From NCBI GenBank assembly GCA_965208625.1, contig OZ242348.1, positions 1,233,948 to 1,297,947 on the forward strand: 64,000 bases of DNA. Direction: 5' to 3'. Below the pieces are notes generated by a model. It saw nothing but the letters and a program-made list of their open reading frames with translations. It searched no databases and had not been told where the DNA came from. Origin of the DNA: Dehalococcoidia bacterium (GTDB lineage: Bacteria; Chloroflexota; Dehalococcoidia; Lucifugimonadales; Australimonadaceae). This document shows positions 1,108 through 58,129 of this stretch, one piece after another. The position numbers were made by a program, and so were the translations under genes. Each line of letters begins with the position of its first letter. Position 1 is the first letter of the stretch.

Positions 1108-2367
1108 ATGCTCAGCGTCAAGGCCAACCAGGAACTCACACAGGTAAGCGCAGGCACGCCCGGGGGCGAGCTCATGCGCCGCTACTGGCACCCCATCGCC
1201 GCAACGGCGGAGCTCGACGAGCGTCCCACCAAGCCGGTGCGGCTGCTCGGCGAGGACCTCGTCCTCTACCGCGACAAGTCCGGCACCCTCGGCCTCATCG
1301 AACGCTTCTGCCCCCACCGCCGCGTCGACCTCTCCTACGGCATCCCCGAGGAGCACGGCCTCCGCTGCATGTACCACGGCTGGATGATGGACGAGACCGG
1401 CCAGTGCATCGAGCAGCCCTTCGAGGAGACGGTCCACCCGGACGGACGCTTCAAGGAGAAGGTCAAGATCGCGGGCTACCCCGTCGAGGAACTGGGCGGC
1501 CTCATCTTCGCCTACATGGGCCCGCAGCCCATGCCGCTGCTGCCGCGATGGGAGCAGTTGACATGGGACAACGCCGTGCGCGAGGTCTGCATCTCGGAAC
1601 TGCCGTGCAACTGGCTCCAGTGCCAGGAGAACTCGCTCGACCCCGTCCACAACGAGTGGCTTCACGCCTACTACGGCAACGTCGTCCGCAACGGCGTCCA
1701 CGCGCTGCCCGAACTGCGCGGCACGCACGTCAAGATCGGGTTCGACGTCTTCGAGCACGGCATCATCAAGCGCCGCGTCTTCAAGGGCTACACCGAGGAG
1801 GACGACGACTGGAAGGAAGGCCACCCCATCATGTTCCCGAACATCCTCCTGGTGGGGGACGAGGTGCGCTCCACGTTCCAGTTCCGCGTGCCGGTGGACG
1901 ACGAGCACACCTACCACGTCTCCTACTACGTGTGGCGTCCCGCGCCGGGAGCGCAGGCCCCGCGCCAGGAGAGCGTCCCCTACCGCTACGTGCCGCTGAA
2001 GGACGAGAACGACCGCTACATCAACGACATCCTCTTCAACCAGGACTACCTCGCGTGGGTCACGCAGGGCCCGGTCGCCAAGCGCCACCTGGAGAAACTC
2101 GGCGAGTCCGACAAGGGCATCATCCTCTTCCGCAAACTGCTGCAGGAGCAGGCGAAGCTCGTCGCCGACGGCGGCGACCCGATGAACACGTTCCGCGATC
2201 CCGAGGAGAACCAGGCGATCCACCTGCCGCTCGAGCAGGTGAAGTTCGGCAACCGCCGACGCCCCGGTTACGCTCTCGTCGAGGCCGGAGAGCCCACGGT
2301 GACGGACATCGTGAACGAGACGCTGGAGAGTTGGGAGGGCATGCGCGGCATGCGCCAGCCGGCGTAG
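1108..2367 (+). CDS. Rieske [2Fe-2S] non-heme iron oxygenase, alpha subunit (phthalate-family, class IA-like), paralog 1
   Basis: Rieske motif CPHRRVDLSYG...CMYHGW; mononuclear iron motif NWLQCQENSLDPVHNEWLH. Start moved from 1039 to the ATG at 1108 (MLSVKANQELTQV, GAGGTG 9 nt upstream) to match the N-termini of the other paralogs. Confidence 0.9.
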   Translation: MLSVKANQELTQVSAGTPGGELMRRYWHPIAATAELDERPTKPVRLLGEDLVLYRDKSGTLGLIERFCPHRRVDLSYGIPEEHGLRCMYHGWMMDETGQCIEQPFEETVHPDGRFKEKVKIAGYPVEELGGLIFAYMGPQPMPLLPRWEQLTWDNAVREVCISELPCNWLQCQENSLDPVHNEWLHAYYGNVVRNGVHALPELRGTHVKIGFDVFEHGIIKRRVFKGYTEEDDDWKEGHPIMFPNILLVGDEVRSTFQFRVPVDDEHTYHVSYYVWRPAPGAQAPRQESVPYRYVPLKDENDRYINDILFNQDYLAWVTQGPVAKRHLEKLGESDKGIILFRKLLQEQAKLVADGGDPMNTFRDPEENQAIHLPLEQVKFGNRRRPGYALVEAGEPTVTDIVNETLESWEGMRGMRQPA

Positions 2368-2374
2368 CCGGCGG

Positions 2375-2692
2375 GTGGAGCGTAGCTTGGACGACAAGGC
2401 CAGCCAACCCGAGACCGACGAATCGGATGACCCGTGGGACGAACCCGAGGTACAGGCGAACCTGAACCGAATCTACAGCAGAGGGCTTTCCACAAACTGG
2501 TATCCATTCCGAAAACCTGTGGACCGGGATGCCGTCAATGTTGAGGGGAATCAGGTGCAGCAGGATCCCGCACGGTGGGCGGCAGGAATGTTCAAGCGGC
2601 CATCGACCATTGTCCTGCTGGGAGTACTGGTGGCGGGAGTGCTGGTGGTCGGCGCAGCGTCCATCATTTCGCTACTTCCGCCCAACGCCTGA
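2375..2692 (+). CDS. small acidic protein with a C-terminal transmembrane anchor, hypothetical
   Basis: 105-aa ORF starting 8 nt after the Rieske stop (GTG start). C-terminal hydrophobic helix STIVLLGVLVAGVLVVGAASIISLL. No family recognised. Confidence 0.35.
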   Translation: MERSLDDKASQPETDESDDPWDEPEVQANLNRIYSRGLSTNWYPFRKPVDRDAVNVEGNQVQQDPARWAAGMFKRPSTIVLLGVLVAGVLVVGAASIISLLPPNA

Positions 2693-2806
2693 TCCCGACC
2701 CCCATGGCACGCCCTGCCACATACCCCTTGACGCTTGACGTTGCGCGGCTTGCTATAATCCCGCCACAGGGCAGAGAAACCCACCAGCACAAGGAGAGCA
2801 CATCTC

Positions 2807-4090
2807 ATGCTGACGCAGGAAGCAAACGACCGCTACACCCGTGTAGGCCCCGGCACCCCGATGGGCGAGTTGATGCGACGCTACTGGCACCCCGTCGCCG
2901 CCGTCTCCCAGATGAACGACAAGTGGACGATGAAGGTGCGCCTCCTCGGCGAGGACCTCATCCTCTACAAGGACCGCTCCGGCACCTACGGCCTCATGGA
3001 GCCACACTGCGCCCATCGGCGCATGAACATGATCTACGGCATCCCCGAGGAGCATGGTCTGCGCTGTCCGTACCACGGCTGGCTGTACGACGAGACGGGC
3101 CAGTGCACGGAGCAGCCGTACGAGGAGACGGAGGACCCTGAGGCGCGGTTCAAGGACAAGATCCAGATGAAGGCGTACCCGGTCGAGCAGAAAGCCGGGC
3201 TCCTCTTCGCCTACCTCGGCCCCACTCCCGTGCCGCTGGTCCCCAACTACGACGTCTTCTCGGCGACCGGCGTCTTGCGCGACATCGGCTACGCGATGCT
3301 GCCGTGCAACTGGCTTCAGTGCCAGGAGAACTCGCTGGACCCGGTGCACCTTGAGTGGCTGCACGTCGCGTGGGCCAACTTCATCCGTGAGATGAACGGC
3401 GACGAAGAACGCCGCACCCGCCGCCCACACAAGGTCATCCACTTCGACGCCTTCGAGCACGGCATCATCAAGCGCCGCATCTGGGAGGGCGGTTCCGAAG
3501 AGGACACCGAGTGGAAGGACGGCCACCCCATCGTCTTCCCCAACTACCTCCGGCAGGGCGGCGACGGCTTCAACGTTTCGGACGGGACGTACCGGGGCAG
3601 CTTCTCGATGGGCCCCGCGTTCCAGATACGCACCCCCATCGACGACCACAACACCGCCCACTGGTGGGTCGCCTGCTACCCGATGGTCGAGGGCGACGTC
3701 GAGCAGACGGCGGAGGAGATCCCCTTCTACCTCCCGCCCGTGCCGATGCTGAACGAGAACGACCAGCCCGTCTACCCCGAACTGCGCAGCAACTCCTCGC
3801 AGGACCCGGCGGCGTGGATCACCCAGGGCGGCATCGCGGACCGCACCGGCGAGCACCTGGGCCGCTCCGACAAGGGCATCATCATGTTCCGCCAGATGCT
3901 GGAGGACAACATGCGCATCGTCGAGGACGGCGGCGACCCGATGGAGGTCTACCGCGACCCTGCGGAGAACGTCTACATCCCGTTCATGACGGAGCAGCAC
4001 AACTACGTGGACACCTCCTCGCGGCAGGGGGCGGCGACCATGTACTCGCCGATCCTGGATAGGCGCGAAGCCGCAGCGGCGGCAAAGTAA
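2807..4090 (+). CDS. Rieske [2Fe-2S] non-heme iron oxygenase, alpha subunit, paralog 2
   Basis: MLTQEANDRYTRVGPGTPMGELMRRYWHP; CAHRRMNMIYG...CPYHGW; NWLQCQENSLDPVHLEWLH. AAGGAG upstream of the ATG. Confidence 0.9.
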   Translation: MLTQEANDRYTRVGPGTPMGELMRRYWHPVAAVSQMNDKWTMKVRLLGEDLILYKDRSGTYGLMEPHCAHRRMNMIYGIPEEHGLRCPYHGWLYDETGQCTEQPYEETEDPEARFKDKIQMKAYPVEQKAGLLFAYLGPTPVPLVPNYDVFSATGVLRDIGYAMLPCNWLQCQENSLDPVHLEWLHVAWANFIREMNGDEERRTRRPHKVIHFDAFEHGIIKRRIWEGGSEEDTEWKDGHPIVFPNYLRQGGDGFNVSDGTYRGSFSMGPAFQIRTPIDDHNTAHWWVACYPMVEGDVEQTAEEIPFYLPPVPMLNENDQPVYPELRSNSSQDPAAWITQGGIADRTGEHLGRSDKGIIMFRQMLEDNMRIVEDGGDPMEVYRDPAENVYIPFMTEQHNYVDTSSRQGAATMYSPILDRREAAAAAK

Positions 4091-4100
4091 CGAACGCCTG

Positions 4101-4230: not shown

Positions 4231-5340
4231 ATGACCCTCATCCTGAACAACGACGACATCGCATCCGTACTGACGATGGAAGAGACGATAGGCGCCCTGC
4301 GGAGCGCGTACGAGGAGCTCGCGCGCACCGAGGCCGTCTGCCGCCCGCGCATCGACATCCGCATCCCCACGTCCGACCCGTCGAAGATGTACCAGTGGGG
4401 CACCATGGAGGGCGGCTCCGCGTCCGGCTACTTCGCCATCCGCATGAAGTCGGACGTCGTCTACGAGCAGGAGTACGGCGGCACGCGCACCCAGGAGAAG
4501 TACTGCCTGCGCCCCGGCCTCTTCTGCGGCCTCATCCTGCTGATGAGCGTCGACAACGGCGAACCCCTCGCCATCATCAACGACGGCTACCTCCAGCACA
4601 TGCGTGTAGGTGCCGACTCCGGCATCGGCGCGGGCTACATGGCGCGCGAGGACGCCTCGGTCGTCGCCATGATCGGCTCCGGCGGCATGGCGCGCTCGCA
4701 CGCCGAGTCGTTCGCCGCCGTGCGCGACATCAAGCGCATCCAGGTCTACAGCCCCACGAAGGCCAACCGCGAGGCCTACGCCGAGGAGATACGCGGCAAG
4801 CTTGGTATCGAGGTCGTCCCGGTGGCGTCCGCGGCGGAGGCGTGCAAGGGCGCGCACATCGTCGCTGGGTGCACTGACGCGGTCGAGCCGGTCATCTTCG
4901 GCAAGGACGTGGAGGACGGCGCGCACATGACCTGCGTCGGCGGCAGCATAGACGGCGAGGCGATGGAGCGCATCGACCGCTCGCTCCGCCTCGGTTCGGC
5001 GCCAGCGCCGGTCGGCATACCGGAGATGCGGCTCCACGACGAGAACATCGCCTACGAGGCCAACGCACCGGACGGCACGCCCGCATCCGCGAGCCAGACG
5101 CGCGAGCGCGCCGGTAGAGGGCACGGCGTCGTTGCCGAGGACCGCGTTGTCTTCCTGGAGGAAGTGCTGCAGGGAGCGCAGGGACGCCCTGGCCCTACCG
5201 CCGTCACCTACTCGGAGCGCGGCAACATCCAGGGCGCGCAGTTCTTCTCTGTCGCGGGCCGCGCCTACGAGCTCGCGAAGGCGAAGGGCCTCGGCCACGA
5301 ACTGCCCACGGAGTGGTTCCTGCAGGACATCCGCGACTAA
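4231..5340 (+). CDS. ornithine cyclodeaminase / mu-crystallin family protein
   Basis: 369 aa. N-terminal LILNNDDIASVLTMEETIGALRSAY and Rossmann loop VVAMIGSGGMARSHAESF are typical of the OCD/mu-crystallin fold. GGAGG RBS. Confidence 0.85.
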   Translation: MTLILNNDDIASVLTMEETIGALRSAYEELARTEAVCRPRIDIRIPTSDPSKMYQWGTMEGGSASGYFAIRMKSDVVYEQEYGGTRTQEKYCLRPGLFCGLILLMSVDNGEPLAIINDGYLQHMRVGADSGIGAGYMAREDASVVAMIGSGGMARSHAESFAAVRDIKRIQVYSPTKANREAYAEEIRGKLGIEVVPVASAAEACKGAHIVAGCTDAVEPVIFGKDVEDGAHMTCVGGSIDGEAMERIDRSLRLGSAPAPVGIPEMRLHDENIAYEANAPDGTPASASQTRERAGRGHGVVAEDRVVFLEEVLQGAQGRPGPTAVTYSERGNIQGAQFFSVAGRAYELAKAKGLGHELPTEWFLQDIRD

Positions 5341-5721: not shown

Positions 5722-6822
5722 ATGGCGCGACGTTTCACCTACGACGACTGGATGGAAGCCCAGGGCATCCCCATCCACCGGGGCTACTACGTGGAAGACC
5801 TCCGCGTCGCCGAGTTGGGGTGGTGGGAGGACCGCCAGGTCGACGCCGCGTTCATGCAGTTGCGCGGCATGGAGGGCGTGTGCGAGGGCCGCATCGAGGA
5901 GATACCGCCCGGCCACTCGCTCCCGCCCCTGAAACTCTCGGTCGACGAGCAGGTCTACGTCCTCGGCGGACGCGGCGTCGCCACCGTCTGGACGGACGAC
6001 TCCCGCCCGAAGAAGACGTTCGAGTGGGCGACCCGCAGCCTCTTCCTCATCCCGCGCAACTCCTACTGCCAGCTCACCAACATGGACGGCAACAACCCGG
6101 CCCGGCTGCTCCACTACAACTACCTCCCCATAGCCATGTCGGCCACGCCGGACCCGGACTTCTTCGTCAACAACCCGTACTCGACGAACTCGTTCCTGCA
6201 CAGCACCGACGAGTTCTACTCCGAGGCGAAGGCCGTTATGGAGGAGGGCGAGGGCGCGTTCGCCGGACGCGGACGCCAGGTCTGGCACGGCAACTTCTTC
6301 CCGGACATGGCCGCCTGGGACAAGCTCGTCCCGTTCTGGGGCCGCGGCGCGGGCGGACACGTCGTCTTCATCCAGTCGCCCGGCTCGGAGATGCACGCGC
6401 ACATGTCCGTCTTCCCCGCACGCACCTACAAGAAGGGCCACCGCCACGGCCCGGGCCGCGTCATCGTCATCCCCGGCGGCGAGGGCTACTCGGTCATGTG
6501 GGAGGAGGGCAAGGAGAAGGTCGTCATCCACTGGCACGAGGCAAGCTGCTTCGTGCCGCCTGACCGCTGGTTTCACCAGCACTTCAACCTCGGAGGGGCC
6601 GACGGGCGCTATCTCGCGCTCCATCCACCGAACCAGTTCATGGGCATGTCCGAGAAGGTGACGGACAGGGGCCGCGACCAGATCGAGTACCCGAACGAGG
6701 ACCCGTGGATACGCGAGTACTTCGAGGACCAGTTGGCCGAACGCGGCATGACGTCCGAGATCCCGGCGGAGGCGTACGAGGACCCCGCGTACGAGTGGGA
6801 CTACTCCAAGTCCTCGGGCTGA
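5722..6822 (+). CDS. bicupin metalloprotein (cupin A), function unknown
   Basis: 366 aa. The C-terminal barrel carries cupin motif 1 GHRHGPGRVIVIPGGEG and motif 2 PPDRWFHQHFN; the N-terminal barrel is degenerate. GGAGG RBS. Paralog at 16296-17390. Confidence 0.8.
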   Translation: MARRFTYDDWMEAQGIPIHRGYYVEDLRVAELGWWEDRQVDAAFMQLRGMEGVCEGRIEEIPPGHSLPPLKLSVDEQVYVLGGRGVATVWTDDSRPKKTFEWATRSLFLIPRNSYCQLTNMDGNNPARLLHYNYLPIAMSATPDPDFFVNNPYSTNSFLHSTDEFYSEAKAVMEEGEGAFAGRGRQVWHGNFFPDMAAWDKLVPFWGRGAGGHVVFIQSPGSEMHAHMSVFPARTYKKGHRHGPGRVIVIPGGEGYSVMWEEGKEKVVIHWHEASCFVPPDRWFHQHFNLGGADGRYLALHPPNQFMGMSEKVTDRGRDQIEYPNEDPWIREYFEDQLAERGMTSEIPAEAYEDPAYEWDYSKSSG

Positions 6823-6918: not shown

Positions 6919-8442
6919 ATGCACGACGATGACGACCTCGACCATGCACACGTACTCGACCTCCTGAACGACGAAGAAGCCGAGGACATCGAGGGGATCG
7001 AGAAGTTCACGCTCTACAGCGTGGGCATAGACATCGGCTCCTCCACCACCCACACCATCTTCTCCCGCCTGATCCTCCGCCGCGAAGGCGCAGGGCTCTC
7101 CGCCAAGTTCGTCGTCACCAACCGCGACGTACTCTACCGCTCGCCCATCATGCTCACGCCCTACTCCTCCGGCACCGCTATCGACACGGACAGCGTGCAG
7201 CAGTTCATCGAGCGTTCGTACAGCGAAGCAGGCTTCACGCCGGACGACGTGGACACCGGCGCGGTCGTCATCACGGGCGAGGCCCTCAAGAAGGAGAACG
7301 CCCAGCCCATCCTGGAGTACTTCTCGGAGGAGTCCGGACGCTTCATCTGCGCGTCCGCCGGCCCGATGCACGAGGCGCTGCTGGCAGCGTTCGGCTCCGG
7401 CGCGGTCGCCATCTCCAAGAGCAACGCAAACACCGTGCTGGACGTGGACATGGGCGGCGGCACGACGAAGATATCCCTCATCCGAAACGGCGAGATCGCC
7501 CAGATGGTCGCCATCGAGGTCGGCGCGCGCCTCATCGCGTACGACGACGACATGACCATCTCCCGCGTCGAGCAGCCCGCCCGCACCATCCTCGGTTCGC
7601 TCGGCCAGACGGTCGAGGTCGGAGAGAAGCTGACCGACGAGAAGCGCGAGCTCTTCGCCGCGAAGATGACCGACATCCTCTTCGACGCCATCAGCGGCGG
7701 CAAGGTGGACCCGCTCACGGAGTCGCTCCTGCTCACCGACAGCCTCGACACCGCTTCGCTCGAGGACGTCGACCACGTCGTCTTCTCCGGCGGCGTCTCC
7801 GAGTATGTGTACGACCGCACGAACGAATCGTACGGCGACATCGGGCCGTGGTTCGGAAAGATGGTCCGCGAGCGCTGCCAGCAGACGTTGCGCCCGGGGA
7901 TGCTGGTGATGCCCGCCGAGGGCATCCGCGCCACCGTCATCGGCGCGGGCGAGTACACGCTCCAGGCAAGCGGCAGCACCTCCTACATCTCCACGCACGA
8001 CGTGCTGCCGGTGCGCGGCATCCAGGTCGCGCGGGCGTTCATCAACAAGGAGCAGACTGCGGAAGAGATGGAGGCTGCGCTGTCGGCAGGCGTCGGCAAG
8101 TACGACCTGGAGAAGCTCCCGTCCACCATGGCGCTCGCCATGTCCATAGCCGGACAGCCGGACTACTGGTACATCCGCCGGCTGGCCGAGTCCATCATCA
8201 AGACCGTGGACGACGAGCCGCCGGAGGCCCCGGTCTTCGTCGTCGTGGACGTGGACGTGGCCAAGTCGCTCGGCGGCATCATCCGCGAGGAGTTGCACCT
8301 GGACCGCGCCGTCATCGCGATTGACGGCATCGAGGTGGGCGACCTGGACTACGTGGACGTGGGCAAGCCGATGGGCGCAAGCGAGGTCATCCCCGTCACC
8401 GTCAAGTCGCTCGTCTTCTCCATCCGCTCGCAGTCCGGGTAG
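6919..8442 (+). CDS. EutA-like ASKHA-fold ATPase (ethanolamine ammonia-lyase reactivase family homolog), copy A
   Basis: 507 aa. Phosphate-1 loop VGIDIGSSTTHTIFS and phosphate-2 loop LDVDMGGGTTKISL; length and collinearity are typical of EutA. Paralog at 17436-18998. Confidence 0.8.
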   Translation: MHDDDDLDHAHVLDLLNDEEAEDIEGIEKFTLYSVGIDIGSSTTHTIFSRLILRREGAGLSAKFVVTNRDVLYRSPIMLTPYSSGTAIDTDSVQQFIERSYSEAGFTPDDVDTGAVVITGEALKKENAQPILEYFSEESGRFICASAGPMHEALLAAFGSGAVAISKSNANTVLDVDMGGGTTKISLIRNGEIAQMVAIEVGARLIAYDDDMTISRVEQPARTILGSLGQTVEVGEKLTDEKRELFAAKMTDILFDAISGGKVDPLTESLLLTDSLDTASLEDVDHVVFSGGVSEYVYDRTNESYGDIGPWFGKMVRERCQQTLRPGMLVMPAEGIRATVIGAGEYTLQASGSTSYISTHDVLPVRGIQVARAFINKEQTAEEMEAALSAGVGKYDLEKLPSTMALAMSIAGQPDYWYIRRLAESIIKTVDDEPPEAPVFVVVDVDVAKSLGGIIREELHLDRAVIAIDGIEVGDLDYVDVGKPMGASEVIPVTVKSLVFSIRSQSG

Positions 8443-21828: not shown

Positions 21829-21915
21829 CGAAAATCTCCCATCAGGCCGTTGCAACGGTCACCAGCCGCCCGCAAAGTCAGCCGGAGACGCGTGCTCCTT
21901 GGCCTGCTTTGAAAA

Positions 21916-21941
21916 GGGCGGCGCGGATATCCGCGCCGCCC
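21916..21941 (-). terminator. stem-loop between the tctC-like and tctA genes (partial terminator or attenuator candidate)
   Basis: 11-bp stem GGGCGGCGCGG / CCGCGCCGCCC with an ATAT loop. On the transcribed (minus) strand it is followed by TTTTC. Confidence 0.5.
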
Positions 21942-21962
21942 CTTGTCATCAGGTGGTCTGGG

Positions 21963-48019: not shown

Positions 48020-49075
48020 CTACCCGATCGCGCCGACGACTTCCTGCCGCTTGCCCTCTTCCTCGCGGTAGAGGCCCATCGCCTCGATCACAGGCAGGTC
48101 GCTCATAGAGAAGAGCACTGCGTCGTCTGACGAGTCGGTGCCGTGCTCGTGCAGTGCCCACGAGGGCAGGACGAAGGTGTCGCCCTTCGTCCATTCGAGC
48201 TGCTTGCCGTCGATGATTGAGTAGCCCTCGCCCTTAGCGACGTGGTAGACGACGCTGGACGTGTGGCGGTGGGCTTCGGTGTGCGAGCCGGGCGCGAGAC
48301 GCTGCAGTTTGAGCGCGAGCGTCGGCATGGAGTGCCCGCCCGTCACCGGGTTGGCGTACTCCATCATCACGCCGTCGAAGGGATCCTCTTCGCCGTAGCC
48401 GAGGAGCGCGCCGTAGGCCTCGTCCCACCGGTAGGTGAGCGGGAGAGCGCCGCCGTGGACGTCTCCCAGGTTGGGGCGCATGAGGCCGTTGCCGATAGAG
48501 GCGTTGGTGAAGCCGACGGGCTTGGTCACGGGCTGCACGTCCTCCGGGAACGGCTCCTGGAACATGGCGTCCAGGTAACCGACCAACGGAGCGTCGAGGC
48601 AGTCGAGCCAGATGACGGGCTTGTCGGTCGGGTTGTTGTGGTCGTGCCACGCCCAGCTGGGGGAGAGGACCAAGTCGCCCTCCTGCATCCGGAAGCGCTC
48701 CCCCTCCTGCACCGTGAAGGCGCCTTCACCCTCGATGACGAACCGGATCGCAGCGGCGGTGTGGCGGTGCGCCTCGGCGATCTCGCCGGGCCAGACGATC
48801 TGGACGGCCGCGGACATCGTCTTGGTCGCGCCGGCCATCGGGCTCTTCAGGCCGGGGTTGCGCATCGTGAGCGCCCGGCGGAAGCCCTGCCCTTTCAGGC
48901 TCTCCAGTGCGCCCGCCTGTATCGCCAGTTCGCGCATCTTGTCCCAGCGCCACACGTGCGGCGCGAGTTTCGGACGCTCGGGCGGGTTCGCGTGCATCAC
49001 CCACAGTGGGTTGATGTTCTCGTCGTCCAACTCCTGGTGGTACGCCTTCTCACTCTCCGGCATCGTCCAGGTCAT
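48020..49075 (-). CDS. gentisate 1,2-dioxygenase family bicupin dioxygenase
   Basis: 351 aa. VQIVWPGEIAEAHRHTAAAIRFVIEGEGAFTVQEGERFRMQEGDLVLSPSWAWHDH matches the GDO iron-binding cupin signature. Confidence 0.8.
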   Translation of the reverse strand: MTWTMPESEKAYHQELDDENINPLWVMHANPPERPKLAPHVWRWDKMRELAIQAGALESLKGQGFRRALTMRNPGLKSPMAGATKTMSAAVQIVWPGEIAEAHRHTAAAIRFVIEGEGAFTVQEGERFRMQEGDLVLSPSWAWHDHNNPTDKPVIWLDCLDAPLVGYLDAMFQEPFPEDVQPVTKPVGFTNASIGNGLMRPNLGDVHGGALPLTYRWDEAYGALLGYGEEDPFDGVMMEYANPVTGGHSMPTLALKLQRLAPGSHTEAHRHTSSVVYHVAKGEGYSIIDGKQLEWTKGDTFVLPSWALHEHGTDSSDDAVLFSMSDLPVIEAMGLYREEEGKRQEVVGAIG

Positions 49076-49085: not shown

Positions 49086-49946
49086 CTACTCTCTTGCCTG
49101 CGCTCTTGCGGACAGTTCGCCTACCTGACTTATGTGTATCGTCACCAGATCGCCCGGTCCAACCGAGCCGACCCCCTCCGGCGTGCCCGTGAAGACGAGG
49201 TCGCCCGGCTCCATGCGGGCCACCCACGACATGTTGGCTATCTGGTTCTTGCAGTCCACGATCATGTCGCGCGTGAATGCGTGCTGGCGTAACTCCTCGT
49301 TCACCCAGAGGTTAATTTCGAGGTCCTGCGGGTCCGGTATCTCGTCTGCCGTCACGATGCACGAACCGATGGGCGCAAAGGTGTCGAACGACTTGCGCTT
49401 GCTCCTGTCCTCGGGTCCGCGCACGGTCATGTCCAGACCGCAGGTGTAGCCGAAGACATGCGAGAGCGCCTCGTCCAGCGGAATCATGCTGCCGCCCCTG
49501 CCGATGACCATGACGAGTTCGGACTCGTGGTGGATGACGCGGTCCGAGTACGGCAGCAGGATGGGGTCGTTCGGGCCGGAGACAGCGCTGGACGCCTTCA
49601 GGAACATCCCCTGGTCGGACGACACCTGGGGAGCGGTGCCGCTCCATGGGCTTTCCTGCATCTCCGCCTGATGCGCCCTGTAGTTGACGGGCTGCGCGTA
49701 CACTTTGCGCGGCGCGGGCACCGGCGGCAGCAGGCTCACGGAGCCGAGCGGCACGCCGCTCTCCGACGCCGCCATCGACTCCACCTGCGGCCGTAGACCG
49801 TCCCATCGCTCGATGAGGAGCAGCATGCGCATAGGCTCGAACTCGTCCGGTAGCTCCGGCAGCAGGCTGGTGACGTCGACGACGGCGTCGCTATCGGTCA
49901 ACACGCCTATGCGGTAATCGTCGAAACTCACGAGGCGCATACGCAC
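49086..49946 (-). CDS. fumarylacetoacetate hydrolase (FAH) family protein (fumaryl-/maleylpyruvate hydrolase candidate)
   Basis: 286 aa. HESELVMVIG, FDTFAPIGSCIV and GDLVFTGTPEGVG. Lies 10 nt upstream of the GDO gene on the same strand. Confidence 0.85.
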   Translation of the reverse strand: MRMRLVSFDDYRIGVLTDSDAVVDVTSLLPELPDEFEPMRMLLLIERWDGLRPQVESMAASESGVPLGSVSLLPPVPAPRKVYAQPVNYRAHQAEMQESPWSGTAPQVSSDQGMFLKASSAVSGPNDPILLPYSDRVIHHESELVMVIGRGGSMIPLDEALSHVFGYTCGLDMTVRGPEDRSKRKSFDTFAPIGSCIVTADEIPDPQDLEINLWVNEELRQHAFTRDMIVDCKNQIANMSWVARMEPGDLVFTGTPEGVGSVGPGDLVTIHISQVGELSARAQARE

Positions 49947-50906: not shown

Positions 50907-51062
50907 ATGCAGGCATACTGCGTCAAGTGTCGGGACAAGCGCGACATGGGTAGCCCCCGCGACGAGACGACCAAGAACGGCAAGCCAATCATCAAGGGGA
51001 CATGCCCCGTCTGCGGCACGGGCCTCAACATCATCGGCAAGACCATGGCCCAGATGGGCTAG
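50907..51062 (+). CDS. small zinc-ribbon protein (DUF5679-like)
   Basis: 51 aa from the ATG 50907 (AAGGAGG upstream). MQAYCVKCRDKRDM...KGTCPVCGTGLNIIG carries two CxxC pairs. Confidence 0.65.
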   Translation: MQAYCVKCRDKRDMGSPRDETTKNGKPIIKGTCPVCGTGLNIIGKTMAQMG

Positions 51063-51113: not shown

Positions 51114-51947
51114 CTAGTACATCACGTCCCCACCGGAGACGGAGACAGCAAGGCCGGTTATGTAGTCCGACTCAGCGGACGATAGGAACGCGGCCATTTT
51201 TGCGATGTCCTCGGTTTCCGTAATCCGGCCGAGCGGGTTTGCCCGTGTGCGGTCGGCCACCATCCCCCGCAACTGCTCCTCAGCCGTCGTGCCTGACGGC
51301 TTGATGGCGTCGGCGATGTACGCGGCGCGCTCCGTCTCGGCGAGGCCTGGGCAGATAGCGTTCACGTTCACCCCGTGCGGCCCGAGTTCATGTGCGACGG
51401 ACTGGGTGAACCCAACCAGCGCGAATTTGGACGCCGTGTAAGCCGCGTAGCGCGGCATCCCCCGCTTCCCTGCCGTGGAAGCGATGGTGACGATCTTTCC
51501 CCCTCCCCCACGTTCGATCATGTGGCGCGCCACGGCGCGTGTGCAGAGGAACGTTCCGCGCACATTCACTCGTTGCACCTCGTCGAACGCCTCCTCCGTC
51601 AGCTCCACCAGCGGCACGCGGTCCGGCCCCGGACGCGACCCGGCGTTGTTCACCAGGATGTCTATCCGTCCGAAGCGTTCGAGCGTTTCCTGCACCATCC
51701 GGTCGACGGACGCGCTGTCCGACACGTCACCGACGAGCGCGAGCGAATGGCGTCCTGTTTCGGCAATCTCGGCTGCGACCGACTCCAGCCCCTGCCAGCC
51801 GCCCGCGCTGCCGTAGGGATTCAGCGCAACGTCATTGATGGCTACATCCGCGCCCTCGCACGCGAGGCGGTTGGCGATGGCGCGGCCGAAACCGCGTTCG
51901 CCGCCCGCACCCGTCACCAGTGCAACCTTGCCTGTCAGGTCGTACAT
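51114..51947 (-). CDS. short-chain dehydrogenase/reductase (SDR)
   Basis: Real start is the ATG 51945-51947 (MYDLTGKVALVTGAGGERGFGRAI), 2 nt after the TAA of the upstream amidohydrolase reading frame. YTASKFALVGFTQS active site. Confidence 0.9.
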   Translation of the reverse strand: MYDLTGKVALVTGAGGERGFGRAIANRLACEGADVAINDVALNPYGSAGGWQGLESVAAEIAETGRHSLALVGDVSDSASVDRMVQETLERFGRIDILVNNAGSRPGPDRVPLVELTEEAFDEVQRVNVRGTFLCTRAVARHMIERGGGGKIVTIASTAGKRGMPRYAAYTASKFALVGFTQSVAHELGPHGVNVNAICPGLAETERAAYIADAIKPSGTTAEEQLRGMVADRTRANPLGRITETEDIAKMAAFLSSAESDYITGLAVSVSGGDVMY

Positions 51948-51949
51948 GC

Positions 51950-52976
51950 TTACGCCATCCCGTAGAAACGCTGCGCGTTCAGCCCGACGACCTTCGCCCG
52001 CTGTTCGGGCGTCATGTCCTCGCGAGCGAGCAGATGTTGGATGTTCTCGGGAAATTCGGCGTCCCAGTGGGGGAAGTCGGACGCGAACATGATGATGTCC
52101 TCGCCCAGGATGCGCATCGTCTCCGGCAACATCCGCTTCTTCGGCCTCACAGGAGATGAAGATGTTGCCTGACGCGAGGTACTCGCTGGGATACTTCGTC
52201 AGCAGCGGCGAGTCCACGTGGCCGCGCAGGTGGTAGCGCTCGTCCATGCGGTCGAGCATGTAGACCGTCCAGCCGCAGCCCGCCTCCAGGAACGCGATCT
52301 TCAGGTCAGGGAACTTCTCCGGCACGCCGGACAGCATGATGCTCACGAACTGCTTCATCTGCGTGAACGCATGGCCGAGCGAGTGCACCTGCGAGAGGTT
52401 GTCGAACAGGAACTCGTCATAGGAGCCGGTGATGCGCCCGCTGCCGTGTACCGCCAACGGCACGCCGAGGCGTTGTGCCTCCTCGTAGATCACGTCGAAC
52501 TGCGGCTTGCCGAACTGGTACGGCCCTTCCGGCAGCATCCCGCCAAGCATGCCGAGCTCTTCGACACAGCGCCGTAGCTCCTGGGCCGCGGCGGGCGGGT
52601 CCTGCACGGGCAGCAGCGCAACGCCCTTAAATCGCGAGTCAAGCTGGAGGTAGGTATCGAACAGCCAGTTGTTGTAGGCGCGGGAGCGCACGATCGCGAA
52701 GTCCGGCTCCATGAGCCAGCCCGCGCCGAGGCTTCCCGTAGGGAAGAGCGCTGATGCTGCAAGCCCTCCGCGGTCCAGTGCGTCGAGCCAGACGCCGGTG
52801 TCCACCTGCCGGGTGCCGAGACGGCCACCGAGCGTGTTGTCGAACCCGTCCCGGGGGGAGTTCGCGCTCAGGCGCGGCCTCTCGTTGTAGGGCTCGGGCA
52901 GGTAGCGGCGAATGTCGTCGTCCGAGTCGCGCACGTGCCCATCGGCGTCTATACAGAGGGTTGCCGTTGTCGTCAT
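51950..52976 (-). pseudogene. amidohydrolase-2 family gene interrupted by a 1-nt frameshift near 52130-52145
   Basis: From the ATG 52974-52976 (AGGAG upstream) the product reads MTTTATLCIDADGHVRD...GNIFISCEAEE. The homologous C-terminus (K)RMLPETMRILGEDIIMFASDFPHWDAEF...RFYGMA continues in the +1 frame down to the TAA at 51950-51952. Confidence 0.7.
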
Positions 52977-53208
52977 GCCCGGTCTCCTGTTCCATTTCAT
53001 GTGGCTGGCGAGGCGCAGCATAGGCCGCCGGGGCAAACACGGCAACTTGCCGCGTTGCGTCAGCTTGTGAACAGGAATCACGCATCGACACTCCAACGAT
53101 TGACCGGACGCTTGCGCAAGAGGTAGAGTGCGCCGCAACAATCGCTGGCACCCACCGAACCGCTGGGCAGGCGGCTCGGTGGGACGTGTCTGGAACAGGG
53201 AGGATTTG

Positions 53209-54501
53209 ATGCGCATCCACAGACTCCTGGCCCTCGGCGCAGTCGCCGTGGTTCTGGCCCTCTTTGCGGCGTGTGGGAGCGACGAGCCCACGGCCACCCC
53301 AACGTCCGCTCCTCAAGCGATGGCCGATGATTCCACCCCCACGCCCGAAGCGATGATGGAAGACGCGGCCACTCCCACGCCCGAGGCGATGATGGAGGAC
53401 GCAGCCACTCCCACGCCCGGCGCGATGATGGCGGAACCGACGGCCACTCCCACGCCACGGCCGACGCCCACGCCCGTGCCGCCCCCAGTCGGCTTCGACG
53501 CGGAGGAGTACTTCGGCGGCAAGACGATCAGAATCATCGTCGGTGCAAGCCCCGGCGGCGGCTACGACACGTTCAGCAGAATCGTCGCTGCGACGGCCGA
53601 GCACTACTTCCCTGAGAGCACGCGCTTCGTCGTGCAGAACCTCCCGGGCGCCGGACAGCTTCGTGGTCTCCGGGCAGTGGTCGACTCGAAGCCAGACGGC
53701 TACACCATCGGCCCGACACACTCGCGCTGGTTCCAGCGACAGCTGTATGTGGGCGACGTCACCGGATTCGACATCGACGCCATCCACATCCTCGGCTCAC
53801 CCACGTTCGCTGTTAACCCCGACGGTTTCTGTCTGGACAAGAACTTCGCCTCCTCCTGGCAGGAGGTGCTGGACAGGGACCTCACGATCAGGGTCGGCTC
53901 CGCAGGGCCAGGCAACGAGCCGGCCATCGAGTTCATGATCGCGAACGGCGGCCCGTTCAATCTGATCTACGGTTACGGCGGCTCGACCGAGATCATGGCG
54001 GCGTTCGACCGTGGCGAGGTGGACGGAACAGGCCGGTGCGGCCCGAGTACCGCCGGGCGCCTCTACCCCGAGTGGATAGATGATGGACGCCTCGTGCCAA
54101 TCTTCTACGAGGCGAAGCCGTACACCGATGAGTGGCTGGCCGAACTCGGGCACACCGGCCCGCTGCCCTGGTACCTCGACCTCCCCGGCATCCCGTTCGA
54201 CGACCCGATCCGGAACAAAGCGAACGACCTGAACCTGCTTGTGTCCGAGATATCCCGCGTCTTCTTCCTGCCCCCAGGCGTTCCGGACGACGTGAAGCAG
54301 TACTGGCAGTCGGCGTTCGATCAACTCGTGTTGGACGAACGGTTCATCGAGCAGCTCACCATCGCCGGCTACCAGGAAGACTACGGCTATGGAAGGGCCG
54401 AGGACATCATGGCGATCGTGGAGCAGGTCCGGAACACTGATCCCGAGATCCTCCAGGCAGCCCTCGAACTGAGCGGCGTCGGCGACCTCATAGTGAACTA
54501 A
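53209..54501 (+). CDS. tctC: TctC-like (Bug family) solute-binding lipoprotein with a repeat-containing linker
   Basis: Start set at the ATG 53209 (GGGAGGA upstream). Lipobox LFAAC; linker with TPTPEAMMEDAA repeats; IIVGASPGGGYDTFSRIVA. Confidence 0.75.
   Translation: MRIHRLLALGAVAVVLALFAACGSDEPTATPTSAPQAMADDSTPTPEAMMEDAATPTPEAMMEDAATPTPGAMMAEPTATPTPRPTPTPVPPPVGFDAEEYFGGKTIRIIVGASPGGGYDTFSRIVAATAEHYFPESTRFVVQNLPGAGQLRGLRAVVDSKPDGYTIGPTHSRWFQRQLYVGDVTGFDIDAIHILGSPTFAVNPDGFCLDKNFASSWQEVLDRDLTIRVGSAGPGNEPAIEFMIANGGPFNLIYGYGGSTEIMAAFDRGEVDGTGRCGPSTAGRLYPEWIDDGRLVPIFYEAKPYTDEWLAELGHTGPLPWYLDLPGIPFDDPIRNKANDLNLLVSEISRVFFLPPGVPDDVKQYWQSAFDQLVLDERFIEQLTIAGYQEDYGYGRAEDIMAIVEQVRNTDPEILQAALELSGVGDLIVN
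53335..53445. repeat. 36-bp in-frame tandem repeat (2 good copies plus 1 degenerate) encoding TPTPEAMMEDAA
   Basis: Units 53335-53370 and 53371-53406 differ at a few mostly third-codon positions. 53407-53445 is a degenerate third unit. Confidence 0.7.
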
Positions 54502-54519
54502 CGCAAAGGCACCCGGTGC

Positions 54520-54548
54520 GCCGGTGCGGACGCGATGTCCGCACCGGC
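54520..54548 (+). terminator. stem-loop between the tctC-like and tctA genes (partial terminator or attenuator candidate)
   Basis: Perfect 12-bp stem GCCGGTGCGGAC / GTCCGCACCGGC with loop GCGAT, 18 nt after the tctC-like stop. Confidence 0.5.
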
Positions 54549-54590
54549 GTGGTTACCTGAGGCGAAACAGCAGAAAGGACATGCCGCCCT

Positions 54591-56123
54591 ATGTGGGAAG
54601 CAGCCATCAGTGCGGCTCAACACCTGTTCAGTCCCGGGCCGCTCATCGCATTCGCGATCATCACCCCCATCGCGCTCTTCAACGGTGTGATGATTGCGGG
54701 CGGCGTACCCGTCTTCATCCTGCTGCTCAGCTTCGCCTCCCAGCTTGACCCGTTCATAGCCCTGCCGGCCGCCGTCTTCTACGCCGCCGCCAACGACGCG
54801 ACCGAACCCATACCGTCCATTCTCATCGGCGTTCCGGGGTCGCGAGGGTCGCAGGCGACGATCATCGACGGCTATCCGATGTCGCGCCAAGGCCGCGCCG
54901 GAGAGGCGCTGGGCGCGGTTTACGTCTCCTCGCTCATCGGCGGCATCATCGGCGCGGCGATGCTGATGGGCGTGCTGCCCGTAGCGCGCGAGGTGCTGAA
55001 ACTGTTCGGGGCGGCGGAGTTCTTCCTCCTCTCACTCCTTGGCATCGCAACAGTGGCGTTGCTGAGTTCCGGCGCGATGGTAAAGGGGTTGCTCACCGCA
55101 GCGTTCGGACTCGCCATCGCCCTCATCGGTTTCTCACCCATCGGCGGCGTCGTCCGCGCAAACATGGGCATCGGCTACCTGTGGGACGGCCTCCCGCTCG
55201 TGCCGATGCTGCTGGGACTGTTCGCCATCCCGGAGCTGGCCAACCTGGTCGTCAGCAACACCACCATCGCGACGGAGCGGCTGGACGAGGTGCTCTCCGG
55301 CTCCGGCGAGGGGGTGAAGAAGGGCATGAAGGAGGCGACACGCCACAAGTGGCTGATCACGCGCTCCTCACTCATCGGCGCTTTCGTCGGGATGATGCCG
55401 GGGCTCGGGGCAGTGCCCGCCCACTGGATAGCCTATGCGCAGGCGCGCCAGACCGAACCGGGCGCGATGGAGTCCTTCGGCACGGGCGACATACGCGGAG
55501 TCATAGCGCCGGAGGCGTCGAACAACGCGATAGACGGCGGCGTGCTGGTGCCCACGCTTTTCTTCTCGATACCCGGCAGCCCCAACATGGCGCTCATCCT
55601 TGCCATGCTCATCCTGGTCGGCATCCAGCCCGGCCCGCCGATGCTCAACCAGCACCTGGACCTGAGCATCGCACTCGTCTGGACGATCGTGCTCGCGAAC
55701 ATCATCGTGGTGCCCATCGTTCTGCGGTTCGCGCCGCTCATCGCCCGCGTCACGGTGATACCGCCGAACATCCTCTTTCCGCTGGTGATGGCCATCATCG
55801 TCATCGGCGTCTACCAGAGCTCGCAGTCCGTTGGAGACCTGTGGCTGTTCGCCGCAGCCGGCGTGCTCGGCCTGTTCATGAAGGCGTACGCCTGGCCACG
55901 GCCGCCCATCGTCATCGCGATCGTGCTGGCGAACGAAGCCGAGAAGTGGCTCTGGATAGCGACCAACACGTACGGCTGGGAGATGTTCCTCCGGTGGCAG
56001 TTCAACGCCATCCTGGCATTCGTCGTTCTCGGTGCGATCGTCGGCATCAGGGCGCAGCGGAACGCATCCCGCATCCGGGCGGCTGAGGCAGCGGAGCACA
56101 ACATAGGGGAGGCGGCGCCATGA
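54591..56123 (+). CDS. tctA: tripartite tricarboxylate transporter permease TctA
   Basis: 510 aa, polytopic, collinear with the first ~500 aa of 19792-21828 (for example PSILIGVPGSRGSQATIIDGYPMSRQGRAGEALG versus PSILLGMPGGATQVTFLEGNQLAQRGHAAHTLG). Confidence 0.85.
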   Translation: MWEAAISAAQHLFSPGPLIAFAIITPIALFNGVMIAGGVPVFILLLSFASQLDPFIALPAAVFYAAANDATEPIPSILIGVPGSRGSQATIIDGYPMSRQGRAGEALGAVYVSSLIGGIIGAAMLMGVLPVAREVLKLFGAAEFFLLSLLGIATVALLSSGAMVKGLLTAAFGLAIALIGFSPIGGVVRANMGIGYLWDGLPLVPMLLGLFAIPELANLVVSNTTIATERLDEVLSGSGEGVKKGMKEATRHKWLITRSSLIGAFVGMMPGLGAVPAHWIAYAQARQTEPGAMESFGTGDIRGVIAPEASNNAIDGGVLVPTLFFSIPGSPNMALILAMLILVGIQPGPPMLNQHLDLSIALVWTIVLANIIVVPIVLRFAPLIARVTVIPPNILFPLVMAIIVIGVYQSSQSVGDLWLFAAAGVLGLFMKAYAWPRPPIVIAIVLANEAEKWLWIATNTYGWEMFLRWQFNAILAFVVLGAIVGIRAQRNASRIRAAEAAEHNIGEAAP

Positions 56124-56761
56124 CGACATCCAACGCCAATGGCGCGACAGCCTCACGCAGCCGCTTCACTTCCATGGAGTTCATCGGCGAGGTAATTCTC
56201 CTCATCGCCGTCGCCGCGTTCTTCATCTACATGTACCTGGACTCCGTGCCGCCGGACGCTGATGCACTGGGGTGGCTGCCATGGCGGCTGGAGTGGGACA
56301 ACGGCGGATGGCTGCTGCCGCGTATCGCGGTCCTGTTCGGGACGCCCTTCTGGTTCTGGCGCGCTTACCTGCTCTTCAAAGCTGGGGCTTCCAGCACGAC
56401 CGGCCAGATAATGGACACCGGCTTCCTGGAAACTGACGACGATCCGATGATGGTCCTGCGGCGCTGGTTCCAGTTGATCGGCACAACGGGCGCGCTGCTC
56501 ATAGGCCTCTGGGTATTCGGCTTCCATATCGCCGTGCCCGCGTACACCATCCTGTACCTCATCATCTTCGGGAAGGTGAAGTGGTACTGGACACTCATAC
56601 CGGCAGTGTTCTTCGAAGTCATCATCATCGGCATCTACGGCTACCTCCTGCTCTCAGAGTGGGGCACTCCGGTCGCACGCGATTGGCCCGTCATCGGCAA
56701 CGTGTGGGACTTCGCCATAGACGCCTGGCACAACTTCTACGAGTCCAACCTCGAGTCGTAG
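56120..56761 (+). CDS. tctB: TctB-like small membrane subunit
   Basis: 213 aa with 4-5 helices. Start overlaps the tctA stop (ATGA). Shares GQIMDTG with the C-terminal module of the fused permease. Confidence 0.6.
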   Translation: MTTSNANGATASRSRFTSMEFIGEVILLIAVAAFFIYMYLDSVPPDADALGWLPWRLEWDNGGWLLPRIAVLFGTPFWFWRAYLLFKAGASSTTGQIMDTGFLETDDDPMMVLRRWFQLIGTTGALLIGLWVFGFHIAVPAYTILYLIIFGKVKWYWTLIPAVFFEVIIIGIYGYLLLSEWGTPVARDWPVIGNVWDFAIDAWHNFYESNLES

Positions 56762-56860
56762 TCACCTTGCACACGACGTGTTGCATGCCGCTGCTGTACA
56801 GGAGTAGTACAATCGGCGGCAGCGAATCAGTGTCCTAAAACGCAGCAGGAGGAGCAAGCC

Positions 56861-58129
56861 ATGCTTTCCATCCAGAACAACGAACTCATCACGCGGGTAG
56901 GCCCCGGTACGCCGATGGGCGAGGCCATGCGGCGCTACTGGATACCCGCGCTCATGGACTTCGAACTGCCGGAGCCCGACTGCGATCCCGTGCGCGTGCG
57001 GCTCCTCGGCGAGGACCTCGTCGCGTTCCGCGACTCCAAGGGACGCGTCGGCTTGCTGCCAGACGCCTGCCCCCACCGCCGCGTGAGCCTCTACTTCGGC
57101 AGGAACGAGGAGGAAGGCCTGCGCTGCGTCTACCACGGCTGGAAGTTCGACGTGGACGGCATCTGCGTGGACCAGCCCAACGAGCCGGAACAGAGTAACT
57201 TCAAGCACAAGGTGAAGACGCGCGCCTACAAGACGTGGGAAAGCGGCAACGTCATCTGGGCCTACCTCGGCCCGGCCAACGAGGTCCCGCCCCCACCCGC
57301 GTTCGAGTGGACGACCGTGCCCGACTCCCACCGCGGCGTCACGAAACTCATCCAGACGTGCAACTGGGTGCAGGCCGTGGAGGGCGGCATCGACACCTCC
57401 CACTCGTCCTTCCTGCACAACAACGACCTCGCCGACAAGACGCTGCTCCGCTCACGCTCCACAGCTCCGTACCTGGAGGTCGAGCAGACCAACTACGGCT
57501 ACACCTACAGCTCCGTTCGCCCGCTCTCCAAGGAAGAAGGCAACTACGTGCGGACGTACCACTACGTGCTCCCCTTCCACCAGCTCCGCGCAGGCCAGGT
57601 GGGGCGCAGCGGCGAGCCGGTGCAGCCGCGCAGCTCCGGCCACTGCTGGGTGCCGATAGACGACGAGAACACGATGGTCTTCAACTGGACGTTCACCTGG
57701 GACGAGAACCCGCTGAACGACAAGGACAGGCGACTCGCAGGCACCGGCAACGAGTGGGACGTCGACATCGACCGCACCACTTTCCGCACGGTGCGCAACA
57801 AGGAGAACGACTGGAAGCTCGACCGGCAGATGCAGCGCACGGAGAACTTCACCGGCATCGTCGGCGTCAACACCCAGGACCGCGCCCTGCAGGAGACGAT
57901 GGGCACCATCGCGGACCGCAGCCAGGAGCACCTCGGCACGAGCGACCGCGCAATCATCGCGATGCGCAAGCTGCTCCAGGAGGCGATACGGGTGAACTCG
58001 GACGGCGGCACGCCGCGCGGCAGCCAGAATGAGTTCGTCGGAATCCGCGCCATCGACCGCATCCTGCCCGCCGACCAGCCGTGGTCCGTGCTCAAGCCGG
58101 ACATGTACCCCATGACAGCCGGACGCTAA
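56861..58129 (+). CDS. Rieske [2Fe-2S] non-heme iron oxygenase, alpha subunit, paralog 6 (divergent subfamily)
   Basis: MLSIQNNELITRVGPGTPMGEAMRRYWIP; CPHRRVSLYFG...CVYHGW; iron motif NWVQAVEGGIDTSHSSFLH, which differs from the ENSLDPVH type of the other five. Confidence 0.9.
   Translation: MLSIQNNELITRVGPGTPMGEAMRRYWIPALMDFELPEPDCDPVRVRLLGEDLVAFRDSKGRVGLLPDACPHRRVSLYFGRNEEEGLRCVYHGWKFDVDGICVDQPNEPEQSNFKHKVKTRAYKTWESGNVIWAYLGPANEVPPPPAFEWTTVPDSHRGVTKLIQTCNWVQAVEGGIDTSHSSFLHNNDLADKTLLRSRSTAPYLEVEQTNYGYTYSSVRPLSKEEGNYVRTYHYVLPFHQLRAGQVGRSGEPVQPRSSGHCWVPIDDENTMVFNWTFTWDENPLNDKDRRLAGTGNEWDVDIDRTTFRTVRNKENDWKLDRQMQRTENFTGIVGVNTQDRALQETMGTIADRSQEHLGTSDRAIIAMRKLLQEAIRVNSDGGTPRGSQNEFVGIRAIDRILPADQPWSVLKPDMYPMTAGR

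Follow-up and report, generated by a model that had tools for sequence, protein, structure and literature searches.

How are many oxygenases of one bacterium supplied with electrons when no electron donor is encoded beside any of them? This question is raised by a 64-kb stretch of Dehalococcoidia DNA (positions 1,233,948 to 1,297,947 of contig OZ242348.1, assembly GCA_965208625.1; hereafter the window), which carries six genes for Rieske oxygenase (RO) alpha subunits, numbered RO1 to RO6 by position. ROs are nonfunctional without an electron donor. SAR202 bacteria, the group to which the window is assigned below, occur in the ocean in large numbers, and their expanded oxygenase families are thought to let them oxidise recalcitrant dissolved organic matter. 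From the analyses described here we consider it probable that the window is an aromatic-acid catabolic region with six diverged oxygenases of the phthalate dioxygenase (PDO) branch, and that their donor or donors are encoded elsewhere and shared by many paralogs.

Six alpha-only oxygenases of the phthalate dioxygenase branch

The six genes are located at 1108-2367 (+; RO1), 2807-4090 (+; RO2, in tandem with RO1), 28418-29695 (+; RO3), 35852-37084 (+; RO4), 43156-44421 (-; RO5) and 56861-58129 (+; RO6). Open reading frames (ORFs), Pfam and tblastn all agree on these positions, as the first-pass annotation of the window had given them. The start of RO5 was taken as the Met at 44421, where homology begins; its open frame extends to 44523/44706. 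No seventh copy was found in the window by tblastn with RO1 and RO6, which returned only the six loci (E 0 to 5e-54). A beta subunit was also not found in the window, as an HcaF-seeded phmmer search gave no match there, while the same seed found 17 in other SAR202 loci.

All six proteins matched Pfam Rieske (E 1e-16 to 5e-20; RO1, 1.7e-18) and scored above the gathering cut-off (27 bits) of Pfam LigXa_C (PF19301). The latter domain is full-length in RO6 (158 bits) and only partially covered in RO1-5 (40-50 bits; RO1, 45 bits), where the match spans ∼50 residues in RO1, RO2, RO3 and RO5. The Rieske and mononuclear-iron motifs claimed earlier are present in every copy: the cluster ligands as CxH-x17-CxxH and the iron motif, including the bridging Asp, as D-x2-H-x4-H (in RO1, CPHRR..CMYH and NSLDPVHNEWLH). 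The iron motif reads N-S-(L/V)-D-P-V-H-x-(E/Q)-W-L-H in RO1-5 and D-T-S-H-S-S-F-L-H in RO6, and the third iron ligand is assumed to be the Asp of a conserved 'P(V/I/M)DD' motif. An N-terminal signature proposed as common to the six fits four of them literally, and RO1 (TQVSAGTPGGELMRRYW) and RO3 (TRVGPCTPMGELMRRYW) only approximately. The same motif is found in the crystal sequences of phthalate and isophthalate dioxygenase (IPDO), and is therefore a family trait.

We placed the proteins by PDB, Pfam and NCBIfam scores together with a fold search. Of the solved structures, those of PDO-KF1 (7FJL/7V25), of RO-CH34 (7FHR), an orphan homologue, and of IPDO (9INA/9IOY) are the best relatives. The alignment of RO6 to these structures was full-length (E about 1e-84 to 1e-87; 9INA, 4e-87; 7FJL, 7.5e-86), with 43.1% identity to PDO and 41.3% to IPDO. 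Sequence matches of RO1-5 to the PDO/IPDO structures were confined to residues 1-187. An AlphaFold monomer model of RO2 (pLDDT 92.4, pTM 0.92) found 7V25, 7FJL, 9INA and 7FHR as its best folds (E about 1e-28 to 1e-30, TM-score 0.65-0.70), followed by a group comprising NdmA, carbazole dioxygenase (CARDO) and SxtT at E about 1e-17; in structural alignment RO1-5 share 25-27% identity with PDO/IPDO. Membership in the carnitine, glycine-betaine or stachydrine types did not emerge: NCBIfam GbcA scored RO6 only, with 15.9 bits against a cut-off of 670, and PDB matches to CntA reached E about 1e-5, compared with 1e-47 to 1e-87 for the PDO group. VanA and DdmC types also scored far below the PDO group. 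The six ROs share with PDO and IPDO the alpha-only form, the N-terminal motif, the Rieske ligands, the bridging Asp and the His-x4-His arrangement. These results support their assignment as alpha-only oxygenases of the phthalate/isophthalate dioxygenase (LigXa_C) clade.

In PDO-KF1, Asp178 is the bridging residue, Ser182 contacts the substrate, and Arg207 and Arg244 bind its carboxylates (PMC8649396). RO6 keeps the equivalents of D178, H181, S182, H186, R207 and R244 at 41-43% overall identity; for RO1-5 the alignment in the Arg207/Arg244/Ser182 region is unreliable. The first-pass annotation had held that the substrates cannot be inferred from sequence. This was too strong for RO6, which keeps the Arg207, Arg244 and Ser182 equivalents and follows a tripartite tricarboxylate transporter (TTT) gene set; judged from both features, its substrate is most likely an aromatic carboxylate.

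Lineage of the window and its flanks

Close RO homologues all came from uncultured Chloroflexota. Among GTDB species representatives there were at least 584 family matches, the best (97% amino acid identity) on chromosomes of Dehalococcoidia metagenome-assembled genomes (MAGs), and paralog matches were present in 'SAR202 cluster bacterium' MPMJ01 and OSU_TB62. On these sequence relationships the window is a SAR202-type Dehalococcoidia (Chloroflexota) chromosome region. A survey of 122 SAR202 genomes counted 365 alpha subunits of ring-hydroxylating dioxygenases (RHDs), with 1-62 copies per genome, the maximum being in MPMJ01 and up to 62 occurring in a single 3.2 Mb genome; these subunits were mostly annotated as phthalate 4,5-dioxygenase, and alpha far outnumbered beta subunits (Saw 2020, mBio, PMC6946804). 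A SAR202-VII-2 MAG carried 30 ring-demethylating monooxygenases and 10 RHDs (Colatriano 2018, Commun Biol, PMC6123686). The window agrees with these reports in lineage, in the kind of gene (COG4638-type alpha subunits) and in having many copies, the difference being that the published work was done at the COG level. As the lineage is the same and the expansion has been published, the paralog array of the window is an instance of the known SAR202 RHD expansion, which itself is not new; the first-pass annotation had not made this link. The word 'ferredoxin' does not occur in the full text of PMC6946804 or of PMC6123686; 'reductase', counted in PMC6123686 only, does not occur there.

Relatives with 86-97% nucleotide identity are syntenic with the window and were used to view its flanks (loci are cited by our own L numbers). 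One or two additional ROs precede the RO1-RO2 tandem in these relatives (L001, 1566-11281; L002, 4305-11281), and on that side L001 and L002 have four ROs within 10 kb. To the right of the last MFS gene they have a methyltransferase, amidohydrolases and a lactamase-fold gene, followed by more ROs (L187, L023), two of which lie ∼10 kb past the equivalent of the right end (L023/L026/L045, 8520-11350). The real cluster is thus larger than six. No reductase gene was found in these syntenic flanks.

Absence of donor genes around the oxygenases

We confirmed that no reductase or ferredoxin gene lies beside any of the six ROs and that the only other [2Fe-2S] protein of the window is CoxS (33509-33982, +), which gave the only Pfam Fer2 match. 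In ∼51 further ORFs of the window, Pfam detected no FAD_binding_6, NAD_binding_1, Pyr_redox_2, Fer4 or Rieske ferredoxin domain, and motif scans of the window in six frames and over every small ORF yielded no credible donor. The window has a G+C content of 62-68% and many shadow ORFs, and all regular-expression matches to plant-type or adrenodoxin-type ferredoxins fell in out-of-frame, Arg/Pro-rich shadow ORFs and were rejected. Likewise, a Cys-rich ORF at 50907-51059 (+) was rejected as a rubredoxin, as it is without the aromatic core and its ortholog is labelled DUF5679; it is a small zinc-ribbon ORF with a CxxC...CPxCG pattern.

The search was then extended with phmmer using ten seeds. The first set consisted of E. 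coli YeaX (phthalate dioxygenase reductase (PDR)-type), HcaD (glutathione reductase (GR)-type), HcaC (Rieske ferredoxin) and Fdx. The others were Pfam-verified proteins from the clusters of cultured homologues described below, namely a Fer4_13 ferredoxin and a Pyr_redox_2 reductase of Peribacillus, and two PDR-type reductases, one reductase with an N-terminal Fer2 domain and one Rieske ferredoxin of Burkholderia. The window and 81 RO-centred SAR202-type loci (1.49 Mb) were screened, and afterwards 26 further loci (0.33 Mb), making ∼1.9 Mb in total with ∼247 RO ORFs (1-6 ROs per ∼21-kb locus). In the window and the 81 loci, YeaX, HcaD and Fdx gave no match, HcaC gave one marginal match, and the six Peribacillus and Burkholderia seeds gave none. 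The 26 further loci also had no donor match; the only MocE matches there were weak ones to the Rieske domains of ROs. As a positive control, E. coli seeds and Burkholderia seeds detected one another (1e-26 to 1e-58). Neither a PDR-type (FAD_binding_6/NAD_binding_1/Fer2), FNR-type or GR-type reductase nor a ferredoxin of the 2Fe-2S, Rieske or Fer4_13 type was found near ROs in the window or in the ∼1.9 Mb of RO-flanking DNA, and no donor appeared in the Pfam-labelled gene lists of six distinct SAR202-type contexts. Seven ORFs had a 4Fe-4S Cys motif, two of them small and ferredoxin-like (112 aa in L043 and 157 aa in L066); neither matched the Fer4_13 seed.

Donors of related oxygenase systems

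The closest cultured homologues are on plasmid pA of Peribacillus sp. R9-11 and plasmid p1 of Burkholderia sp. SFA1 (44.6-45.7% identity to RO2 and 40-50.6% to RO6). The nearest cultivated relatives of RO6 (50.6%) and RO2 (44.6%) are encoded in the pA region (L165, 98000-128000), where the RO2-like gene stands in a same-strand run with a class II aldolase, a Gfo/Idh/MocA gene, an NAD(P)/FAD oxidoreductase and a ferredoxin, the donors being of the Pyr_redox_2 and Fer4_13 types. Peribacillus sp. R9-11 is a cultured Bacillota isolate from Arctic Ocean sediment. On p1, the RO2-like and RO6-like genes are found among PDR-type 'iron-sulfur protein' and 'oxidoreductase' genes and a Rieske ferredoxin gene, with three different reductases and this ferredoxin within 35 kb of three ROs; their companions include a TctA-TctB fusion, a TctC-like protein, an aldolase and dihydroxyphthalate decarboxylases. 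Both clusters have the same non-redox companions as the SAR202 loci, but in the cultured bacteria donors adjoin the ROs and in SAR202 they do not. The window contains these non-redox companions too; the module is thus conserved between phyla, with SAR202 lacking the donor genes alone.

Which type of donor is used clearly differs among members of this RO subfamily. Proteobacterial PDO systems consist of two components, the reductase being a dedicated PDR (PMC8649396), whereas the window has no PDR-type reductase gene near its ROs. LigXa, the 5,5'-dehydrodivanillate O-demethylase of Sphingobium sp. SYK-6, uses a ferredoxin and a ferredoxin reductase, and ligXa, ligXc and ligXd are unlinked (SLG_07770, SLG_08500 and SLG_21200; PMC12997858). 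The first-pass annotation had stated that class IA oxygenases need a reductase of the ferredoxin-NADP reductase (FNR)-like/[2Fe-2S] type; LigXa, the Fer4_13/Pyr_redox_2 pair of Peribacillus and the Rieske ferredoxin of Burkholderia show that this does not hold family-wide. LigXa belongs to the same Pfam LigXa_C family as the window ROs, and its gene is likewise unlinked to the ferredoxin and reductase genes. It is, however, a single characterised enzyme and not a paralog array, and was compared at the Pfam level only, where the match of RO1-5 to LigXa_C is weak. In sphingomonads, several oxygenases without adjacent donor genes use a common ferredoxin and reductase encoded elsewhere; in R. wittichii RW1, Fdx3/RedA2 serve both DxnA1A2 and BenAB, and other sphingomonads share components too. 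These systems are mostly alpha3beta3 and three-component, and their sharing was demonstrated by experiment, while for the window it is a deduction. With the LigX and sphingomonad systems as clear precedents, unlinked shared donors are an arrangement familiar from other bacteria.

Divergence and age of the paralogs

RO1-5 form one divergent subclade, within which the Rieske domains are 60-84% and the catalytic domains 41-55% identical; RO6 stands well apart from it, at about 50% and about 25% for the two domains. The difference between the domains is most pronounced for RO1 and RO3 (84% versus 44%) and is also seen for RO5 and RO4, its closest paralog (79% versus 53%). Gene conversion was rejected as its source: the fraction of identical codons among identical residues, calculated per domain, was equal across the domains (0.72 versus 0.70 for RO1/RO3; 0.66 versus 0.68 for RO4/RO5), which points to purifying selection and not to recent gene conversion. 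Within alignment columns 60-120 of the Rieske domain, columns 90-120 are 100% identical in RO1/RO3 and 92% identical in RO4/RO5. By residue numbering, this most conserved stretch appears to overlap the equivalent of the 105-125 loop of PDO, a loop that has been suggested as the site of reductase docking. Such conservation over a putative docking loop is compatible with a common redox partner without being proof of one.

RO1 and RO2 share only ∼49% identity, but orthologs with 94-97% identity to either of them are present in at least 20 related loci each (orthologs in related genomes: RO1, 94%; RO2, 97%), which indicates that the tandem pair is old and conserved. In many genomes RO1, RO2 and RO6 have orthologs of 86-97% identity. 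As the paralogs are old and diverged, the panel of substrate-specific oxygenases suggested by the first-pass annotation is plausible, and its proposal that the panel draws on shared, unlinked donors is also supported; that there is just one such donor, and that the oxygenases are class IA, is not established.

A model for electron supply and the alternatives to it

In the model that we favour, an electron would enter the N-terminal Rieske [2Fe-2S] cluster and cross the subunit interface via the bridging Asp, after which the 2-His-1-carboxylate iron site would activate O2 on the bound aromatic substrate. The divergent catalytic domains would confer different substrate specificities, and RO6 would most likely act on an aromatic carboxylate imported by the adjacent TTT transporter. 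The products may then be processed by Gfo/Idh/MocA dehydrogenases, decarboxylase-like proteins, bicupins and an FAA hydrolase. The input from NAD(P)H to the Rieske cluster, a reductase possibly with a ferredoxin, would come from elsewhere, with one or a few donors common to many paralogs. We regard unlinked shared donors as well supported but unproven.

Several points weigh against this model. The screen covered the window and RO-flanking DNA and brought no donor gene to light. The seeds were proteobacterial or from Bacillota, and a very divergent Chloroflexota donor could have escaped them. The flanks beyond the window were deduced from relatives of 86-97% identity. Rieske oxygenases in general are typically better conserved in the Rieske than in the catalytic domain, and the values for RO1-5 are weak evidence for a common partner. 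Gene identity, family placement, lineage, the local lack of donors and the conservation of this pattern are shown by the data, whereas the sharing, number and type of donors, the substrates, and the choice between dioxygenation and O-demethylation are predictions drawn from sequence.

The last of these choices concerns what RO1-5 do, and leaves the donor question unchanged. They might be O-demethylating monooxygenases of the LigXa type, with methoxylated lignin-derived aromatics as substrates, and not dioxygenases that dihydroxylate the ring of aromatic acids, as the JGI automatic annotation names many close homologues '5,5'-dehydrodivanillate O-demethylase', Amidohydro_2 genes that are possibly LigW-like adjoin ROs, and 30 'ring-demethylating monooxygenases' were counted in SAR202-VII-2 (PMC6123686). 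However, the weak LigXa_C match of RO1-5 (the ∼50 residues noted above for all but RO4) does not favour this assignment, the nearest structures are PDO and IPDO, and the recurrent partners in SAR202 as well as in cultured bacteria (Gfo/Idh/MocA proteins, class II aldolases and dihydroxyphthalate-decarboxylase-like genes) are those of phthalate-type dioxygenase pathways. The companions and the nearest structures together favour phthalate-type dioxygenation, and we consider O-demethylation unlikely, though worth keeping in mind. As to the donors, each RO or small group of ROs could have its own dedicated donor elsewhere with no single shared chain, as might be expected from a family that uses several donor types and from Burkholderia with its three reductases and Rieske ferredoxin beside three ROs. 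Since a 3.2 Mb genome may hold as many as 62 ROs, one-to-one donors should be found near at least some of them, and none was found in ∼1.9 Mb around ∼247 ROs; we therefore judge dedicated donors to be improbable. The missing donors, and nothing else, would also fit with the paralogs being decaying or non-catalytic relics that need no donor. Cluster and iron ligands are intact in all ROs, their G+C content at third codon positions (0.84-0.92) is that of other window genes, and the 86-97% identity of RO1, RO2 and RO6 to their orthologs effectively refutes decay, to which we assign hardly any probability.

A further alternative to donors of the conventional types encoded elsewhere is that SAR202 runs its dozens of ROs per genome on a non-canonical donor, either a housekeeping ferredoxin/FNR pair or a module resembling one found in the window. 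This alternative is speculative and we think it very unlikely. The module in question is a set at 32313-34851 (+), in which a Zn-dependent alcohol dehydrogenase (ADH) gene is translationally coupled to CoxS and the paired FAD subunit CoxM (33907-34851, +), 1 kb upstream of RO4. The best NCBIfam match of the ADH is the NDMA-dependent ADH (378 bits, under the cut-off of 440). CoxS/CoxM is the only FAD plus [2Fe-2S] pair of the window, and no molybdopterin large subunit was found within the 64 kb, although elsewhere each of the 18 judgeable loci with a CoxM homologue had an ORF of large-subunit size within 4 kb of it. These features could suggest an electron-input module for the ROs. On the other hand, the pair is absent from the 81 RO-centred SAR202 loci, an RO was present in only one of 80 CoxM-homologue loci (the metagenome scan for CoxM returned homologues of at most 57% identity and is uninformative on close relatives of the window pair), and the large subunit may be encoded elsewhere. 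We know of no precedent for electron donation to ROs by CoxS/CoxM. Because the set does not recur near other ROs, a donor role for the window's own copy is remote, and we give it next to no weight compared with conventional donors encoded elsewhere and shared.

Neighbouring genes and catabolic context

The neighbours named by the first-pass annotation, OCD (4231-5340), DinB (27856-28380), an Amidohydro_2 protein (37133-38242) and TctA (54591-56123), were all correctly identified. The TTT transporter set upstream of RO6 and on the same strand (53128-56761, +) consists of a lipoprotein binding protein with a lipobox (53128-54501, +; 5e-27 to a Burkholderia TctC-like protein), TctA (54591-56123, +; Pfam 1e-103) and a TctB-like membrane protein with transmembrane segments (56120-56761, +). 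A second TTT-type transporter is located at 19792-23378 (-). Both binding proteins (457 and 471 aa) have lipobox signal peptides and were missed by Pfam TctC, while matching the Burkholderia TctC-like protein. One TctA of the window is 687 aa long with extra C-terminal transmembrane segments, and resembles the 736-aa TctA-TctB fusion of Burkholderia.

Among possible pathway enzymes, a Gfo/Idh/MocA oxidoreductase identified by Pfam downstream of RO3 (30355-31674, +) is a candidate cis-dihydrodiol dehydrogenase; it matched the corresponding genes of the Peribacillus RO2-like cluster at 1e-100 and of Burkholderia at 2e-80. A second one (46667-47905, -; 5e-78 to a cultured homologue) is co-directional with a Cupin_2 bicupin (48020-49075, -), which may be gentisate-dioxygenase-like, and with an FAA hydrolase (49086-49946, -). 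An NMT1-like protein (13573-14496, -; Pfam NMT1) matched a Burkholderia '4,5-dihydroxyphthalate decarboxylase' at 5.8e-27. The Amidohydro_2 protein encoded directly 3' of RO4 (37133-38242, +; Pfam 7e-30) is possibly a LigW-type decarboxylase or a hydrolase.

Two bicupins of a single uncharacterised family (5722-6822, + and 16296-17390, +) are each followed by an EutA-like ASKHA ATPase of ∼510 aa (6919-8442 and 17436-18998). They are ∼365 aa long, carry the metal motif GHRHGPG...E...HQHFN and have no Pfam match at threshold; the family has 2433 homologues at E<=1e-10. Of 75 bicupins in SAR202-type loci, 53 have an RO no more than 1.5 kb away and 15 have the EutA-like gene next, and a bicupin-EutA-bicupin cluster without any RO exists in another lineage (L193-L197). 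A model of the bicupin (pLDDT 89.9) gave generic bicupin matches (oxalate decarboxylase, MncA, vicilins; TM-score ∼0.45, ∼11% identity). We rejected the protein as a hidden redox partner: its fold is that of an ordinary bicupin with a His/His/Glu/His metal motif, it contains no domain for binding a cofactor, and it also occurs without ROs.

Three other genes were observed. A single 727-aa ORF at 51114-53297 (-) joins Amidohydro_2 (residues 206-362) to SDR (457-723); at its position the relative OZ242210.1 has separate genes, one for an amidohydrolase (341 aa) and two for SDRs (277 aa each). The ORF could have arisen by genuine fusion or by deletion, or be an artefact of sequencing. Divergent from RO5, the gene at 44548-46521 (+) encodes a eukaryote-like protein of 657 aa with ten RCC1 repeats (Pfam RCC1_2, 4e-79), in a lineage that includes sponge symbionts. 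A PIN-domain toxin gene follows just after RO6 (58482-58943, +), and a relative has an RHH antitoxin gene ahead of it.

Implications for SAR202 oxygenases

As stated, the finding itself adds little, since the expansion is published and unlinked shared donors are familiar. It does raise the concrete question of which proteins reduce the dozens of ROs in a SAR202 genome. A non-canonical donor, if true, would explain why none of the screened donor types is found beside ∼247 ROs even though donors are adjacent in cultured relatives. The Peribacillus pA cluster offers a practical surrogate for the substrates and donors of this RO subfamily. Identification of the donor would allow SAR202 ROs to be reconstituted heterologously, and hence their substrates to be discovered.

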